This document shows, piece by piece, positions 5,016 to 19,037 of a stretch of DNA of 19,512 nucleotides. The stretch lies in IMG/VR virus record IMGVR_UViG_2617270991_000004; one strand, 5' to 3'. Each line of letters opens with the position of its first letter. The first letter of the stretch is position 1. Source of the stretch: a virus. Its lineage: Duplodnaviria > Heunggongvirae > Uroviricota > Caudoviricetes. A program made the translations under genes and the position numbers. The notes below the pieces were generated by a model. The model did no database searches, was not told the origin of the DNA, and worked only from the letters and a program-made list of their open reading frames with translations.

Positions 5016-5768
5016 TTACCCTGCAGCGCCCGCTTCAGTAACGGTGACTTCAGCCACTGCGGCGAACTGACCATTTCCGCTCACCACAGGGATCTGCACC
5101 TTACCTGTCGCCACGCCGTTTACCGTAATTGTCATATCTTTCACACTAATGGTGGCTTTCGACGGATCGGCGGAAACCGCTCTGAACGTCTTGTCGGTTG
5201 CACTTTCCGGCTCAAAAGAAACCGTCAGGGTGGTTGTTTTCCCTTTTGCCACCGTACCGGATGTCGGCGTCACCTTAATCGCACTGACCGGCGTAATTTT
5301 GCTGCGTTCTTCCGCTACAGAAGGTTTACCCACGTTAGTGACTTTCACCGTGCGGGTGATCACTTCTTTCGCCGTCACGGCCTTACCGATACTGCTGACC
5401 CAGCCACGAAACACATCCACCGTGCCATTCGGAAAACGGATTTTATAGGCCCGGACATCGCCGCTTTCAAACCAGCCTATAAGCCCTTTCTGGCCTTCCT
5501 CTCCCGGTTTCCAGGCCAGCGTAAAACTGGTATCACCTGCAGATTTCTGCCCCTGCCCGGTCGCGGTCCAGTCCGCGTCTTCATCATCCAGGTAGTTATC
5601 ATCGTAGGATTCTGCCGTCATCTCGCCCGGCGTCAGATCCTTCACCTTAGCCAGTCGCTGCCAGTCATCGTCTGACAACGGGTTTGCATAAGCATCACCC
5701 TTGCCGTTGTAAACCCACAGAGTGGTACCGGCACCTTTTACCGGCTCAAGGGGATTTGGTGTTGCCAT
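5016..5768 (-). CDS. V: Major tail tube protein V with C-terminal Ig-like domain
   Basis: 250-aa ORF in the lambda gpV position. C-terminal Thr/Val-rich beta segment ([30 protein letters not shown]...) fits a Big_2-type Ig-like domain as in lambda V. Confidence 0.9.
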
Positions 5769-5775
5769 ATCGTCC

Positions 5776-6171
5776 TCACATCTCGTATGTAATGGAATAA
5801 GTCAGATCTGCAGAACTCCATAACGCCATATCGTCATCACGACGATACTCATAGCCCTGCGTAACCATCGTGGTAATCAGTCCTGCCAGTGCCGGGATCG
5901 CGGTCATCGCCGGGTAAATCCGGCTTTCCATCCACTGATCAAGCTCTGAATCCGGTACCTGTGCCGGTAAAAACACCTCAATATGCAGCGTGGCCCGCCA
6001 GGTATCTGCATCCAGCTCTTCACCGGTATACTCTGCATCCGTCAGATAAACCGCGATCGCAGGAAAATCCTCTTCGTCAAAAACAACGGGGCGACCATCA
6101 AACAGCGTCGCCCCGTGTTCATGCTGCTCGAGTGCATCCAGCACTGCGGCACGAATGTCAGTGTGTTTCAT
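5776..6171 (-). CDS. U: Tail terminator protein U
   Basis: 131-aa ORF, same length and position as lambda gpU. Confidence 0.88.
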
Positions 6172-15118: not shown

Positions 15119-15304
15119 ATGTCATCAAAGAACAGAACCCGCAGAACAACAACCCGCAACATCCGATTTCCAAACCAGATGATTGAACAAATTAACATCG
15201 CTCTTGATCTGAAAGGTTCAGGAAACTTTTCAGCGTGGGTTATTGAAGCCTGCAGAAGAAGGCTGTCAACAGAGAGTTCGGGTATGAATTACATAATTAA
15301 GTAA
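15119..15304 (+). CDS. Small YlcI/YnfO-like protein (DUF3950-type, possibly DNA-binding)
   Basis: 61-aa plus-strand ORF MSSKNRTRRTTTRNIRFPNQMIEQINIALDLKGSGNFSAWVIEACRRRL... with a GGGGA SD. Resembles from memory the small YlcI-type proteins found next to terminase genes in E. coli cryptic prophages. Opposite in orientation to the late genes. Confidence 0.6.
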   Translation: MSSKNRTRRTTTRNIRFPNQMIEQINIALDLKGSGNFSAWVIEACRRRLSTESSGMNYIIK

Positions 15305-16495: not shown

Positions 16496-16570
16496 CACTC
16501 GAATCTCCCGAATCAGTTTGCTAAAATCAAACACACTTTCTCCTTTGACTTTTCCAGAGTCAGGAAACAC

Positions 16571-16603
16571 AAAACCCCGCTTGCAGCCAACAAACGGGGT
16601 TTT
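16571..16603. terminator. Inverted repeat / hairpin between R and Rz (possible bidirectional terminator)
   Basis: Perfect 9-bp inverted repeat AAAACCCCG ... CGGGGTTTT with 15-nt spacer. T-rich on the 3' side in both orientations (TTTTTACTTTTATT on plus, UUUUGUGUUUCC on minus). Confidence 0.45.
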
Positions 16604-16693
16604 TACTTTTATTCACTTAGTTTTTGTCAGTTCGCAGGATTTCGTGTTATCCGTCCGTGTGAGCAAACCGCATTTTTCAGCAAAATATTCTGC

Positions 16694-17227
16694 TTATCTG
16701 TCAATTCCCCAGCACGCCAGCGCACTTTCCTGGTCGCGACGGGATACCTGACCGTAACAGTTGTTTGAGCGAATACGGCAGTCTCTGCCACCGTCCTTAA
16801 TCCACCAGCGAATCGCCTCACACGCTCCCCTGCGATCACCTGCATTAATTCGTTTATAAAACGTCGACGGAAAACACTTACCGGGGCCAATGTTGTACGG
16901 ACAGAATGACGCGATCCCCGCTTTCTGGGGTTCACTCAATGGCACTTTGATGTTTTTCTCCACCCATGCCAGCGCCTTATCACGCTCAATGGCGTTAACC
17001 CGGTCGCATTTTCCCTTCGACAGCTTCATACCAGGAATAACAGGCTTACCATCCACCCGGGTGGCTCCACGGCAGATGGTCCAGATCCCCGCACCATCAC
17101 GGTATGCCGTGGTGTGGTTACCTTCTTTTTCGTCAAGAAACTGGTCGAGGATTTCAGGCGCAGACGCCCCTGCACCAATCAGCGCCAGAACGGCAGCCGA
17201 CAGGCCGTATCGGATTTTTACGTTCAT
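16694..17227 (-). CDS. R: SAR endolysin (T4-lysozyme-like muramidase, GH24) with N-terminal signal-arrest-release domain
   Basis: 177-aa ORF. Gly/Ala-rich weakly hydrophobic N-terminus (YGLSAAVLALIGAGASAP), then lysozyme-like motifs (EGNHTTAYRDGAGIWTICRG...CYGQVSRRDQESALACWG). Resembles recalled phage 21 R and E. coli Qin-type prophage lysozyme. Confidence 0.9.
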   Translation of the reverse strand: MNVKIRYGLSAAVLALIGAGASAPEILDQFLDEKEGNHTTAYRDGAGIWTICRGATRVDGKPVIPGMKLSKGKCDRVNAIERDKALAWVEKNIKVPLSEPQKAGIASFCPYNIGPGKCFPSTFYKRINAGDRRGACEAIRWWIKDGGRDCRIRSNNCYGQVSRRDQESALACWGIDR

Positions 17228-17284
17228 GGATATTTATCAGGATTTATCGGTTCCGGCCCCCTGGATATGTTAAGTCTTCAGCCT

Positions 17285-17303
17285 GCCAGTGGTGGGCACT
17301 GGC
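17285..17303. promoter_or_regulatory. Palindrome GCCAGTG-N5-CACTGGC in the divergent region between R and the 104-aa gene
   Basis: Perfect 7-bp inverted repeat with 5-bp spacer, followed on the plus strand by GTTTTAT, about 50 bp upstream of the 104-aa ORF start. Could be an operator or a small terminator. Confidence 0.4.
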
Positions 17304-17355
17304 GTTTTATCTGCTGGCTGAAAATATATCTGACAATTCCAGTCGAGGATTAACC

Positions 17356-17670
17356 ATGCATAACCATCAACATAATTATGATTTATACCTGCAAGCCATA
17401 AATGAGCGGGTAAAATCGGAATGCCTTTTACTCCTCCCGCAAGAACACGAAGCAGTAAAGGCCATTCAGGCTGAACCGTATGGAGCTCTCACTACTGCAA
17501 CTCTCAGTATTATATCCGGAGCATTAACACCAACCTTGCTCCTTCGCCTGAAAGACAATATAGATGACTGGTTAAATGAAGAATTAAGTTACCTTGATTG
17601 CGAATGGGATAATCATTACGCCAAATCACAAAAAGATCGCCTGTTCAGACAATTATCAGGTAACAGATAA
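17356..17670 (+). CDS. Hypothetical 104-aa protein, convergent with the 330-aa gene (part of the S-R insertion)
   Basis: ATG at 17356 with a GAGGA SD 6 nt upstream; product MHNHQHNYDLYLQAINERVKSECLLLLPQEHEAVK...LSGNR. The track ORF 17104..17670 extends further 5' but that part is antisense to R. AT-rich; no family recognised. Confidence 0.6.
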   Translation: MHNHQHNYDLYLQAINERVKSECLLLLPQEHEAVKAIQAEPYGALTTATLSIISGALTPTLLLRLKDNIDDWLNEELSYLDCEWDNHYAKSQKDRLFRQLSGNR

Positions 17671-17676
17671 CAGTAC

Positions 17677-18669
17677 TTATATCCGCCCTTTGAGATAATT
17701 CAGCCCCGGCTGGAGCCAGCCATCAGGCTCTTTCTTAAAGGGCGGAGTATTGAAATCACGAAGAAGGACCTCCCGCACCGCAGTATCCCTGTCTGCACCA
17801 CTGGCAAGCGCTTCAATCTCAGCAGCTACCTGCAGATATCCCATGCAACGGCCAACGCGCTTCATCAGCCCCTGCTTTTTATTGTTCTTCAGGTAATCAA
17901 TGGCAAATTCAATGAGCTCCTCACTGTGCTGGTGCGATGGAGGTGTTACTTTCCCATTTTCTGAGATGGTTATTTTCCCACCATCACCGGATACAACAAA
18001 GGATGGCCGGTTACACTCCCATTCCAGCTCACTGAAATTATCATTATGAATACTGAAACACTCTGCGAGATTTCTGCTCATCACTTTCCGGCAATAATCG
18101 TAAAACGCCGCAAACTGCTGCTCATCGCGGCGTTTTTTTTCAGGCTGCTGAAAATGCTCTTTCAACAGTGAAGCGCAGTTCAGGCGCGCAGCTAATTCAA
18201 GAATAGTTTCTTTCATTTCATCTGCTGCAAGCACCTCATTTTTTGTTGGGGTGCTTTTTTTCAATTCAGTAACACAGCACTCCAGTTTTTCAATGCGTGA
18301 TTCAATATCATCTTTTTCTGACCGCAGTGTTGACGGCGGCATCTTCAGAGCATCAGTAATTCTTCCCGGTAGCTTTCCTTTGTAGGTTATCAACACATCC
18401 TGCGCCTCTAAAATTATGGGGCGCTTTTCTGGCAACGGTTCATCCCCTTCACATAACCCGGCAGCAATATCCATGAAAAACTGCTTCGCCTGCTTTTTCG
18501 CCTCAGCTTCGTAAAACTCCAGCGTGGCACCTTCAGTACGGTCAAGACTAATCGCCACATTTGGCAACAACAGTGGCGGATACCCACCAATTTCCAGTGC
18601 CACAGTAACAGCTATCTTATCCGGGTAATGATTTATCCCTTTTACAACCAGTTCATATTTTTTATTCAT
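17677..18669 (-). CDS. Hypothetical 330-aa protein inserted between holin and endolysin
   Basis: Long ORF whose ATG lies 3 nt after the holin stop (GAG TAG ACG ATG); the holin 3' end GGGGAGAG acts as SD. AT-rich relative to flanking phage genes. Predicted central coiled coil (DDIESRIEKLECCVTELKK...ILELAARL). No family recognised. Confidence 0.75.
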   Translation of the reverse strand: MNKKYELVVKGINHYPDKIAVTVALEIGGYPPLLLPNVAISLDRTEGATLEFYEAEAKKQAKQFFMDIAAGLCEGDEPLPEKRPIILEAQDVLITYKGKLPGRITDALKMPPSTLRSEKDDIESRIEKLECCVTELKKSTPTKNEVLAADEMKETILELAARLNCASLLKEHFQQPEKKRRDEQQFAAFYDYCRKVMSRNLAECFSIHNDNFSELEWECNRPSFVVSGDGGKITISENGKVTPPSHQHSEELIEFAIDYLKNNKKQGLMKRVGRCMGYLQVAAEIEALASGADRDTAVREVLLRDFNTPPFKKEPDGWLQPGLNYLKGRI

Positions 18670-18672
18670 CGT

Positions 18673-18888
18673 CTACTCTCCCCGAGCCGCCTTACGACGG
18701 TCCTCTCTGATTTTGAAATACAGGTTAGTCAGATATGTCAGCAGCCCAAACAGCAGACTCCCCAGCACGCCTATTGCCGCCCACTGAGACGGGGAAACCC
18801 TGTCCAGCAACTGCAGGAACCAGTAGCCCGTTCCCACCGCTGACGTGGTGTATGACACACCTGTTGTGATTTTTTCCATCTGGTACAT
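18673..18888 (-). CDS. S: Holin, phage 21 S-type pinholin with dual-start motif
   Basis: From ATG 18888 the product is [71 protein letters not shown] (71 aa), matching the recalled S21 C-terminus. M-Y-Q-M gives two starts 3 codons apart. The longer track ORF (to 18993) would run through a terminator hairpin. Confidence 0.9.
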
Positions 18889-18920: not shown

Positions 18921-18952
18921 AATAAAAAAGCCACCAGTTAAGTACTGATGGC
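18921..18952 (-). terminator. Intrinsic terminator upstream of the holin gene (candidate tR'-like late terminator)
   Basis: Minus-strand RNA has an 8-bp stem GCCAUCAG/CUGGUGGC (one G-U pair), 7-nt loop, then UUUUUUAUU. Lies between the partial upstream ORF and the holin start. Confidence 0.7.
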
Positions 18953-19037
18953 TCTGATAACTCATGCAGGCGTCTCAGACGACCCACTGACACTACCGGT
19001 GAGTTTAACGATACCTTCCATTTGACTGGCTCACTTT

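Follow-up and report, generated by a model that had tools for sequence, protein, structure and literature searches.

The window analyzed here is a stretch of 19,512 nucleotides (nt), held as the IMG/VR virus record IMGVR_UViG_2617270991_000004 (Caudoviricetes). It belongs to a lambdoid, Stx-phage-like but stx-less prophage of Escherichia coli, is 100% identical in sequence to E. coli B1-56, and carries its late genes on the minus strand. The lysis region of this prophage contains a small gene of 104 codons in the opposite orientation. Here, we consider this gene, its late-strand partner of 330 amino acids (aa), and the leader in front of the small gene (Table 1). Along the late strand, the order is holin, 330-aa partner, the plus-strand 104-aa gene, and endolysin, all downstream of the Q region, and Rz follows the endolysin gene R. 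Based on sequence comparison, the late operon of this lambdoid prophage appears to have acquired a mobile two-gene moron, with the small gene as its cargo. The gene pair is also present in some Stx2-converting phages and in a prophage of E. coli O104:H4. Related loci are cited below by their L numbers.

Table 1. Features of the moron and its surroundings in the window (positions count from the first letter of the window).
Feature	Coordinates	Strand	Remarks
104-aa cargo gene	17356..17670	+	ATG 17356, TAA 17670; 104 codons plus stop; phrog_1853
Shine-Dalgarno sequence GAGGA	17345-17349	+	6 nt 5' of the ATG
330-aa partner	17677..18669	-	phrog_1085, 5e-172
3' stem-loop	17671..17752	+	Directly after the 104-aa stop; within the last ~22 codons of the partner
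Hairpin B (palindrome of the first-pass annotation)	17284..17304	+	TGCCAGTG / GTGGG / CACTGGCG
Promoter-like core CCCTGG-A-TATGTT	17259..17271	+	-10-like hexamer 17266-17271; G at -14 is 17264
TCAGCC box	17278..17283	+	Near-invariant in leaders gathered by a pattern omitting TCAGCC
GGCTGA box	17316..17321	+	Remnant of the GATGGCTGATTA loop of hairpin C
Spacer from endolysin start to TCAGCC	17228..17277	.	Homologue of the moron leader's promoter-proximal part
R, phage 21-type endolysin	16694..17227	-	Pfam Phage_lysozyme, 5.6e-24; annotated lysozyme; next late gene downstream of the cassette
S, class II (phage 21-type) holin	18673..18888	-	Pfam Phage_holin_2_1, 2.6e-32; coding sequence called by PGAP; late gene upstream of the partner

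The 104-aa open reading frame (ORF) is a real protein-coding gene, because it has diverged in the manner of coding DNA, is intact in 42 of 44 IMG/VR loci, has length-conserved homologues, and yields a confident structure model. Three clades of the protein occur in E. coli, with 100%, 77%, and 67% identity and no insertions or deletions between them. The pairwise ratio of non-synonymous to synonymous substitution rates (dN/dS) between clades is 0.24–0.56, and substitutions follow the order 3 > 1 > 2 by codon position in nearly all between-clade comparisons. The frame that starts at 17356 is open and a shift to 17357 meets stop codons; each of the remaining five frames across the ORF contains 5–10 stops. 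The ORF is also called by the Prokaryotic Genome Annotation Pipeline (PGAP), as the 'hypothetical protein' WP_032188670.1. A profile search of 1.8 billion representatives brought in further homologues of ~105 aa with 28–45% identity. The AlphaFold (AF2) model is a confident five-helix bundle (predicted local distance difference test score, pLDDT, 88.7), and the product is predicted to be a soluble, acidic protein of 12 kDa with an isoelectric point of 5.4. A first-pass annotation of the window had described this ORF as the only convincing plus-strand gene of the lysis region, preceded by a GAGGA Shine-Dalgarno sequence. Both descriptions hold: it is the sole annotated plus-strand gene between holin and endolysin, its divergence is of the coding type, and the ribosome-binding motif lies where Table 1 places it. 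The opposite view, that the ORF is untranslated and the region a non-coding spacer of the late transcript, might draw on the narrowness of the family, which in a word-indexed search comprises 15 clusters at 90% identity, all from E. coli, and which has no Pfam family. Such a spacer is hardly conceivable when dN/dS is well below 1, protein divergence of 33% has left the frame undisturbed, even homologues with only 28% identity are of the same length, the structure model is confident, and the Shine-Dalgarno sequence is strong.

The late-strand partner begins 3 nt past the holin stop codon and has a composite structure. Its residues 1–100 (18370–18669) form a DUF1327/YdfR domain (Pfam PF07041, 3.3e-40, 136.6 bits against a cut-off of 25), its middle is a coiled coil, and its C-terminal part (~17680–18027) is a conserved domain with the motif GRCMGYLQVAAEIE...REvLLrDF.tPPFKK..W..PG..YLKGRI. 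Outside residues 1–72 of the protein, AF2 gave a poor model (pLDDT 49.7). In distant partners, GRCM..LQ.AAEIE...RE..L.D..PPFK..W..PG..YLK is invariant. In other E. coli prophages the small gene stands beside a stand-alone partner of 185 or 213 aa, which has the coiled coil and the C-terminal domain but no DUF1327. In the window as well as in L002, L003, L051, and L052, the PGAP annotation stops after ~112 codons of the 330-aa ORF, which are labelled an 'incomplete YdfR family' pseudogene. A systematic mis-annotation of DUF1327 fusions is likely, because full-length homologues make up phrog_1085 and hundreds of protein clusters.

The two genes are arranged tail-to-tail, and in the window their stop codons are 6 nt apart (17670 and 17677). 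On every contig that is long enough, the cargo homologue meets the 3' end of a partner homologue, or of what remains of one, with a spacing that ranges from a gap of 6–20 bp to an overlap of 8–33 bp. This neighborhood is constant over more than 60% protein divergence and at two genomic positions. In E. coli the pair is located between S and R; in L053, L058-60, and L061 it is located upstream of the holin gene. Since the holins at these latter loci belong to three different families, the pair appears to move as a unit. In L053, which encodes a homologue with 44% identity, tandem STnc100 small RNA (sRNA) genes (5532-5738 and 5856-6062, minus strand; 72 and 61 bits) and a HicAB pair sit between Q and the partner/cargo module.

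Directly behind the small gene, the plus strand can fold into a very stable stem-loop. Its outer helix has 14 bp (17682-17695 with 17733-17746), and the minimum free energy is -40.4 kcal/mol (z = -5.55), a stability reached by none of 200 shuffled sequences. The helix is formed by the complements of the partner's PPFKK codons and of its KGRI-stop codons. Across 11 distinct sequences, among them L053 and L058, its pairing amounts to 94%, with 20 G·U cells that are valid only on the plus strand. Two compensatory events were found in the outer helix, in one sequence each, and both combine a synonymous change in one arm with a non-synonymous change of the partner protein in the other. Covariation is not significant among the 11 sequences (92 of 500 shuffles reach it), and there is no U-tract after the stem-loop. 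We read the structure as the putative 3' end of the cargo messenger RNA (mRNA), on the basis of its stability, conservation, and strand asymmetry rather than of covariation. Two plus-strand, terminator-like sites are located farther on, antisense within the partner gene, at 18116-18132 (T8) and 18229-18256 (T7); the first overlaps the conserved EKKRRDEQ codons, and these sites could end read-through of the small gene's transcript.

Two features that distinguish morons, extra DNA and a deviating base composition, can be recognized at this locus. Relative to loci in which the partner stop codon is 36 bp from the R start, the window carries an insertion of ~440 bp, and the cassette is absent from L051/L052 and from L006, where plain ydfR is followed by R. 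The G+C content of the 104-aa ORF is 40.3%, compared with 54% for R, S, and the whole window. Morons also carry their own expression signals. Here the candidates for these are a -10-like hexamer and a G at -14 that are invariant, accompanied by a poor -35 region and a negative consensus scan, and the stable 3' stem-loop without a U-tract. Finally, the window has two of the features of convergent morons of the HK022 and ES18 type, namely a common leader upstream of the opposite-strand gene and a late gene tail-to-tail with it.

The leader was approached through a palindrome. The first-pass annotation had pointed out GCCAGTG-N5-CACTGGC about 50 bp upstream of the small gene, and it is indeed there: the arms occupy 17285-17291 and 17297-17303, the loop is GTGGG, a T·G pair extends the stem to 8 pairs (17284-17304), and the 3' end of this extended hairpin is 52 nt from the ATG. 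By itself the palindrome means little, because a 7+7 palindrome with a 5-nt loop is expected by our arithmetic about once per 19.5 kb by chance; its weight rests on conservation. The GCCAGTG/CACTGGC stem, preceded by TCAGCC, recurs upstream of distant homologues with the loops GTGGG, CCGACA, and GCGCGGGA, and the loop lengths among relatives are 5, 6, 6, and 8 nt. A pattern scan of IMG/VR found the leader in at least 120 contigs. The idea that the hairpin is an element of the endolysin leader only was dropped, as the same hairpin precedes distant homologues elsewhere and occurs in these phage contigs. Another candidate, that the hairpin is a relic of the C-terminal codons of ydfR (...PPLAG*), may hold historically and leaves the covariation described below unexplained.

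An alignment of 70 distinct leader copies (A10) defines an element of ~190 nt. Read on the cargo strand, it begins next to the start of the following late gene with a GC hairpin and an A7 run, which on the late strand constitute a terminator with T7. Next come TACTGTyTGAATATCAGGrTGT, then AACCCTGGt, and then a hexamer that is TAAGGT, TATGTT, or TAAAGT. After 7 nt there follow TCAGCC, hairpin B, CACTC..., hairpin C (GGAGG / GATGGCTGATTA / CCTCT), TAAGGA, and the cargo ATG. All 70 copies, including those of the window and L053, agree in the first, second, and last bases of the hexamer (TAnnnT) and in the G that precedes it by two bases. Such a pattern is characteristic of a -10 element with a G at -14, and at 17259-17271 we infer a weak sigma-70 promoter. 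With the spacing found at such elements, transcription is predicted to start at ~17278-17280, 7–9 nt past the hexamer. Hairpin B is thus probably the 5'-terminal stem-loop of the 104-aa mRNA. In canonical leaders, ~50-65 nt upstream of the predicted start, TACTGTyTGAATATCAGG forms a palindrome-like sequence (CTG-N9-CAG; for example, in L074, 6118-6307, minus strand). Its left half resembles a LexA half-site with a spacing one base short, and it could be a regulator site; in the window this left half is replaced by the R start codon.

The conservation of hairpin B concerns its pairing. Two of its stem positions were left free in the search pattern, which fixed the remainder; these free positions pair in 69 and 67 of the 70 distinct sequences. 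Pair 2 is UG in 42, CG in 16, and UA in 11, and pair 6 is UA in 51, CG in 11, and UG in 5. Family-wide, hairpin B is 99.3% paired. Cells of the G·U type are far more numerous when the leader is read on the plus (cargo) strand than on the minus (late) strand, being 47 versus 2 in hairpin B and 42 versus 10 in hairpin C. The observed pairing is 89%, compared with 32–53% when the partner columns are slid. Both the covariation and the G·U cells assign the fold to the plus-strand RNA. The TCAGCC box (17278-17283) is complementary to GGCTGA (17316-17321), a sequence that is also present in the hairpin C loop of canonical leaders, and a pseudoknot is possible; both boxes are nearly invariant, so that a covariation test has too little variation to judge.

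These properties bear on what the palindrome is. The first-pass annotation had in effect treated it as an operator, to be checked for de-repression, and had named GTTTTA (17304-17309) and TATATC (17325-17330) as weak -35/-10 candidates. The latter two hexamers are 15 bp apart, were not scored in a consensus scan, and are not conserved in relatives, and this promoter is abandoned. A DNA operator for a dimeric repressor of the small gene is highly unlikely as well. Although a perfect 7-bp inverted repeat does lie near the gene, and in our reading of the sequence the -35 of one possible downstream promoter overlaps its right arm, the spacing of the arms varies among relatives. The compensatory and G·U changes in the stem preserve pairing rather than sequence and do so in a strand-asymmetric manner, and the conserved -10-like TAnnnT element is located upstream of the palindrome, 12 nt from it, not downstream. 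Given the variable loop, the plus-strand G·U covariation, and the position of the hexamer, a 5'-terminal mRNA hairpin is the likelier identity. Alternatively, the palindrome could be a plus-strand intrinsic terminator or insulator that stops antisense transcripts across R and Rz, or an attenuator of the small gene. A scan rates it terminator-like, with 8 pairs followed by TTTTATCTGC, and the E. coli members of the cargo family retain 4–5 T after the hairpin. In contrast, CACTC and no T-run follows the hairpin in at least 60 canonical leaders, L053 has GTTCAACG at this place, and no plus-strand gene or promoter was found upstream of the palindrome in the lysis region. Termination here after a start at ~17280 would leave an RNA of only ~28 nt. 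We therefore hold a terminator to be quite improbable, and continue with hairpin B as the predicted 5' end of the cargo mRNA.

The copy of the leader in the window is incomplete. The GGCTGA box is all that survives of hairpin C, and the R start codon sits at the position of the late-strand terminator; therefore, the window leader is a truncated variant. A covariance model (R1) built from 60 canonical leaders, none of them of the window type, nevertheless matches the window once, at 17256-17339 on the plus strand, with 44.3 bits (E ~1.6e-9). The same model scores 108 bits in HK022, 96 in ES18, 62 in an O104:H4-type locus, 56 in L058/L059, 49 in L053, and 16 in a plain-ydfR locus, and finds no leader in phi80. 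Rfam matched the leader neither in the window nor in eight loci at E <= 1. The homology between different S-R cassettes ends exactly at the 3' end of hairpin B. A truncated leader consisting of the -10-like hexamer, TCAGCC, and hairpin B is found upstream of R in ~2200 of 5426 complete E. coli genomes, and it is retained there even when no opposite-strand gene follows.

Beyond the window, the leader precedes a large variety of genes. At least 25 unrelated cargo families of 42–210 aa, mostly 65–105 aa, stand behind it by an automated and approximate count, and the family in the window is one of them. Insertion sites of the modules include those between the tape-measure region and the gpM-like gene, between M and L, between I and J, between S and R, and upstream of S. 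A survey of ~100 distinct cargo/partner pairs among the matches listed, in which detection was automated and noisy, gives an impression of the partners. Thirty of the 85 partners detected have a coiled-coil N-terminus of the MTLEQRVEALEK type and others are DUF1327-like; one N-terminal cluster is common to 12 cargo families, and of the 31 C-terminal clusters, 27 were each seen with one cargo family only. Two further loci carry opposite-strand ORFs behind the leader. In E. coli O157 FDAARGOS_293 (L004, 1562-2263, plus strand; 38.6 bits) there is an unannotated ORF of ~210 aa, and in EC2 (L005, 1562-1801, plus strand; 67.4 bits) an ORF of ~60-90 aa. Each faces, tail-to-tail, the gene of a DUF1327 fusion protein with another C-terminus, and the holin-endolysin gap thus looks like a hot spot for cargo.

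Annotated modules of the same design are known from two phages. HK022 gp23 ('srb') is annotated as 'moron gene product' and is tail-to-tail with gp22 (AF069308, Juhala et al. 2000), and ES18 gp24 and gp25 are both marked 'possible moron' (AY736146, Casjens et al. 2005). The ES18 record also has putative terminators annotated at the position of the leader's GC hairpin and at the hairpin behind gene 25 (AY736146). As in the window, a small late-strand gene in these phages is tail-to-tail with an opposite-strand gene between conserved late genes, the common leader lies upstream of the opposite-strand gene, gp23 in HK022 and gp25 in ES18 (108 and 96 bits with R1, versus 44), and a hairpin follows that gene within the partner's 3' end. 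The cargo and partner proteins, however, are unrelated in sequence to those of the window. The HK022 and ES18 modules are located in the tail operons (I-J and M-L) and keep hairpin C and the T7 late-strand terminator, neither of which the window copy has. In contrast, the pair in the window is located between holin and endolysin, and its partner is fused to DUF1327. The literature searched contained no description of the leader, nothing on the 104-aa protein, its phrog, or HK022 'srb', and no transcriptome result for the 104-aa gene.

Other extra genes of prophages resemble the small gene in part. HK97 gp15 and lambda bor are, like it, additional genes located within late operons or next to them; they have expression signals of their own, their G+C content deviates, and they are expressed from the prophage (PMC3594210). 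Unlike the window gene, they are single, with neither a cognate late-strand partner nor a common leader. The N-terminal 100 residues of the partner place it in the DUF1327 family together with YdfR of the K-12 Qin prophage, which occupies the same holin-endolysin position. YdfR has 103 aa and, unlike the 330-aa partner, lacks the C-terminal domain and an opposite-strand gene.

The closest functional parallels are pairs in which a prophage gene is opposed by an antidote. In phi80, TaiEcA is made in the lysogen and falls when Q is expressed, and AtiEcA is an antidote made late, from the late operon (PMC11364771); binding was demonstrated for another Tai/Ati pair (He et al. 2024, PMC11364771). 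This 'noncontiguous operon' is similar to the window in that an opposite-orientation gene lies in a Q-dependent late operon beside a small late-strand gene. Tagged TaiEcA runs at ~26 kDa, compared with 12 kDa for the cargo of the window. In Staphylococcus aureus, Tha/Ith balances immunity and autoimmunity, and switches between lysogeny and lysis, by antisense overlapping transcription and an inhibitor protein (Rostøl et al. 2024, PMC11087260); here the cI operon carries the defense gene, and the antidote is encoded antisense to it (PMC11087260). That system differs from the window in host, proteins, and operon (cI, not late), and its antisense gene is the inhibitor, not the effector. Pseudomonas Tab is reported to couple prophage defense to a cognate inhibitor (PMC10884400), in a different host and with different proteins. 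No homology to Tai, Ati, Tha, Ith, or a catalogued defense protein was found with PADLOC or with tblastn of phages, in which only four Stx2 phage records matched and phi80 was not among them. Because the proteins are unrelated, the phi80 genes are divergent, and phi80 has no leader, the window pair may work like Tai/Ati and is not a member of that group.

Taken together, the small gene is best read as an effector expressed in the lysogen. On induction it would be silenced by antisense transcription from the late operon, and perhaps by the partner protein too, in the manner of Tai/Ati and Tha/Ith. This is a tentative reading, to which we give slightly less than even credence. In the lysogen, the weak sigma-70 promoter at 17259-17271 would start an mRNA near 17280 that runs to ~17750, and the 5' hairpin and the 3' stem-loop would stabilize it. 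The 12-kDa helical protein would then be produced constitutively and act as a prophage effector, most likely against competing phages, or else on a host function. Upon induction, Q-antiterminated late transcription would leave the holin gene, traverse the partner gene, and continue in antisense over the small gene in full and over its promoter; collision, occlusion of the promoter, or duplex RNA would then reduce the output of the small gene. The partner, made only late, may neutralize the effector through a matching C-terminal domain and thereby spare the phage from its own product. Nesting in the opposite orientation within an operon that is switched at induction is a matter of geometry and applies to the 104-aa gene; from the same geometry it follows that its transcript would oppose late transcription into R, as the first-pass annotation had stated. 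That annotation had proposed a lysogen-expressed partner and a switch between lysogenic and lytic expression. What stands of this proposal is a real gene with a constant late-strand neighbor, the hallmarks of a moron, and the required orientation; the operator and the GTTTTA/TATATC promoter do not.

Several observations weigh against an effector silenced in this way. With respect to its identity, the 104-aa protein has no Pfam, NCBIfam, or PADLOC match, a fold search with its model gave no informative match, the 330-aa partner has no PADLOC or NCBIfam match, and PADLOC returned no hits for both proteins together with five related cargo and partner proteins. There is no sequence or leader similarity to phi80 tai/ati, and these genes are divergent with overlapping 5' ends, in contrast to the convergent genes with abutting 3' ends in the window. 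With respect to its expression, the consensus scan scored no sigma-70 promoter at the leader, where the -35 region is poor, and the window lacks hairpin C (GGAGG / GATGGCTGATTA / CCTCT) and the late-strand terminator (GC hairpin + T7). Cargo-free loci (L006) likewise have the -10-like hexamer conserved upstream of R, and this conservation could partly serve the late strand or reflect recent descent. With respect to the pairing, the first-pass annotation had named the absence of the ORF from otherwise identical cassettes as an observation that would speak against its proposal, and this is in part what the genomes contain: of 5426 complete E. coli genomes, 662 contain the partner C-terminal domain and 95 the small gene (~7:1). 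In such partner-only loci the partner stop codon is 36 bp from the R start (L051/L052). A partner-based scan of species representatives found only three Escherichia/Shigella loci, all cargo-free. Conversely, the small gene is intact beside a frameshifted partner in L047 and L048 and beside a degenerate one in L054-57. Since partner-only loci are common and the cargo survives a broken partner, neither gene strictly needs the other. Moreover, the 3' stem-loop of the small gene is made of partner codons, so that physical linkage alone could hold both genes together.

The observations on pairing are what would be seen if the pair consisted of two functionally unlinked accessory genes, namely a stand-alone moron and a 330-aa protein (or a C-terminal domain) with a late function of its own, joined through the embedded 3' stem-loop or terminator. 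The excess of partner-only loci, the persistence of cargo beside a broken partner, and the construction of the stem-loop from PPFKK and KGRI* codons all fit such an arrangement. We regard it as doubtful, although it deserves serious attention. The tail-to-tail pair persists where protein identity has fallen to 28–44% and where it has moved to a site upstream of the holin, and across the leader family the partner C-termini vary with the cargo family while the N-termini do not. In addition, the published systems of similar layout are functional pairs (PMC11364771, PMC11087260).

The position of the pair suggests another function, in lysis itself. In a lysis-control or toxin-antidote module, the partner would act in lysis, by timing or by attack on the envelope, and the small protein would guard against a leaky partner or tune lysis. 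This cargo family is found only within or at the head of lysis cassettes (S-R, or immediately before the holin), translation of the partner follows that of the holin after a gap of 3 nt, and a genetic screen, as cited in PMC13232886, tied ydfR (DUF1327) to envelope integrity. Neither protein, however, has a membrane segment or signal sequence, many 21-type cassettes function without either gene (L006), other cargo families with the same leader occupy tail operons, and for a toxin, the frequent occurrence of partner-only loci would be surprising. A role in lysis is therefore considered unlikely.

A more general version of the silenced-effector reading takes the leader and the conserved N-terminal domains of the partners as a portable, RNA-level off-switch for any cargo, with the variable C-terminus neutralizing the cognate cargo protein. 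Here, the at least 25 unrelated effector genes would share one promoter and 5' untranslated region platform (hairpin B, hairpin C, and a possible TCAGCC/GGCTGA pseudoknot), and the partner N-domain (DUF1327 or the MTLEQRVEALEK coiled coil) would, on induction, recognize the leader RNA and deliver the cargo mRNA to RNase E. A 2026 report describes binding of YdfR to the catalytic half of RNase E and its co-purification with RNA (PMC13232886), and because of this an RNA-level role for DUF1327-type partners is worth considering. The complete off-switch, with both of its layers, is improbable as it stands.

Other elements were observed around the lysis genes. A second opposite-strand gene, of the YlcI/YnfO family (61 aa, 15119-15304, plus strand), is located between terminase and Rz without a copy of the leader. 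A strong terminator-like hairpin with a T-run (18927-18955, minus strand) is located between the sialate esterase gene and the holin. The prophage sRNAs PasA and PasC have been reported at this esterase-holin position (bioRxiv 10.64898/2026.05.13.724894); as an explanation of the site studied here they were rejected, since they map to the esterase-holin interval and not to this site (bioRxiv 10.64898/2026.05.13.724894). In the endolysin-Rz spacer, sub-threshold matches to the Rfam 'rimP leader' were obtained in two unrelated loci, at 16538-16627 of the window and 2910-3015 of L053 (both plus strand). With 29.9 and 32.7 bits against a gathering score of 47, they may be due to chance or to a conserved structure.

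The gene pair is best described as an uncharacterized addition to the known morons and noncontiguous-operon pairs, with a leader that was not found described in the literature searched. If the small protein is a lysogen effector with a late antidote, the pair would add an uncharacterized family to the prophage defense and self-immunity systems described since 2024. The shared leader is more useful than any single gene, as one covariance model marks opposite-strand cargo and late partners across lambdoid phages. It provides a direct way to list candidate effector/antidote pairs and to probe how general the logic of the 'noncontiguous operon' is. It also explains the conserved hairpin before the phage 21-type endolysin gene in ~2200 E. 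coli genomes, and the full-length partner genes prove to have been mislabelled by PGAP as truncated ydfR pseudogenes. The RNA-level off-switch, if true, would represent a modular two-layer self-immunity device, made of RNA and protein, and a guide to new pairs of prophage defense and antidote genes.

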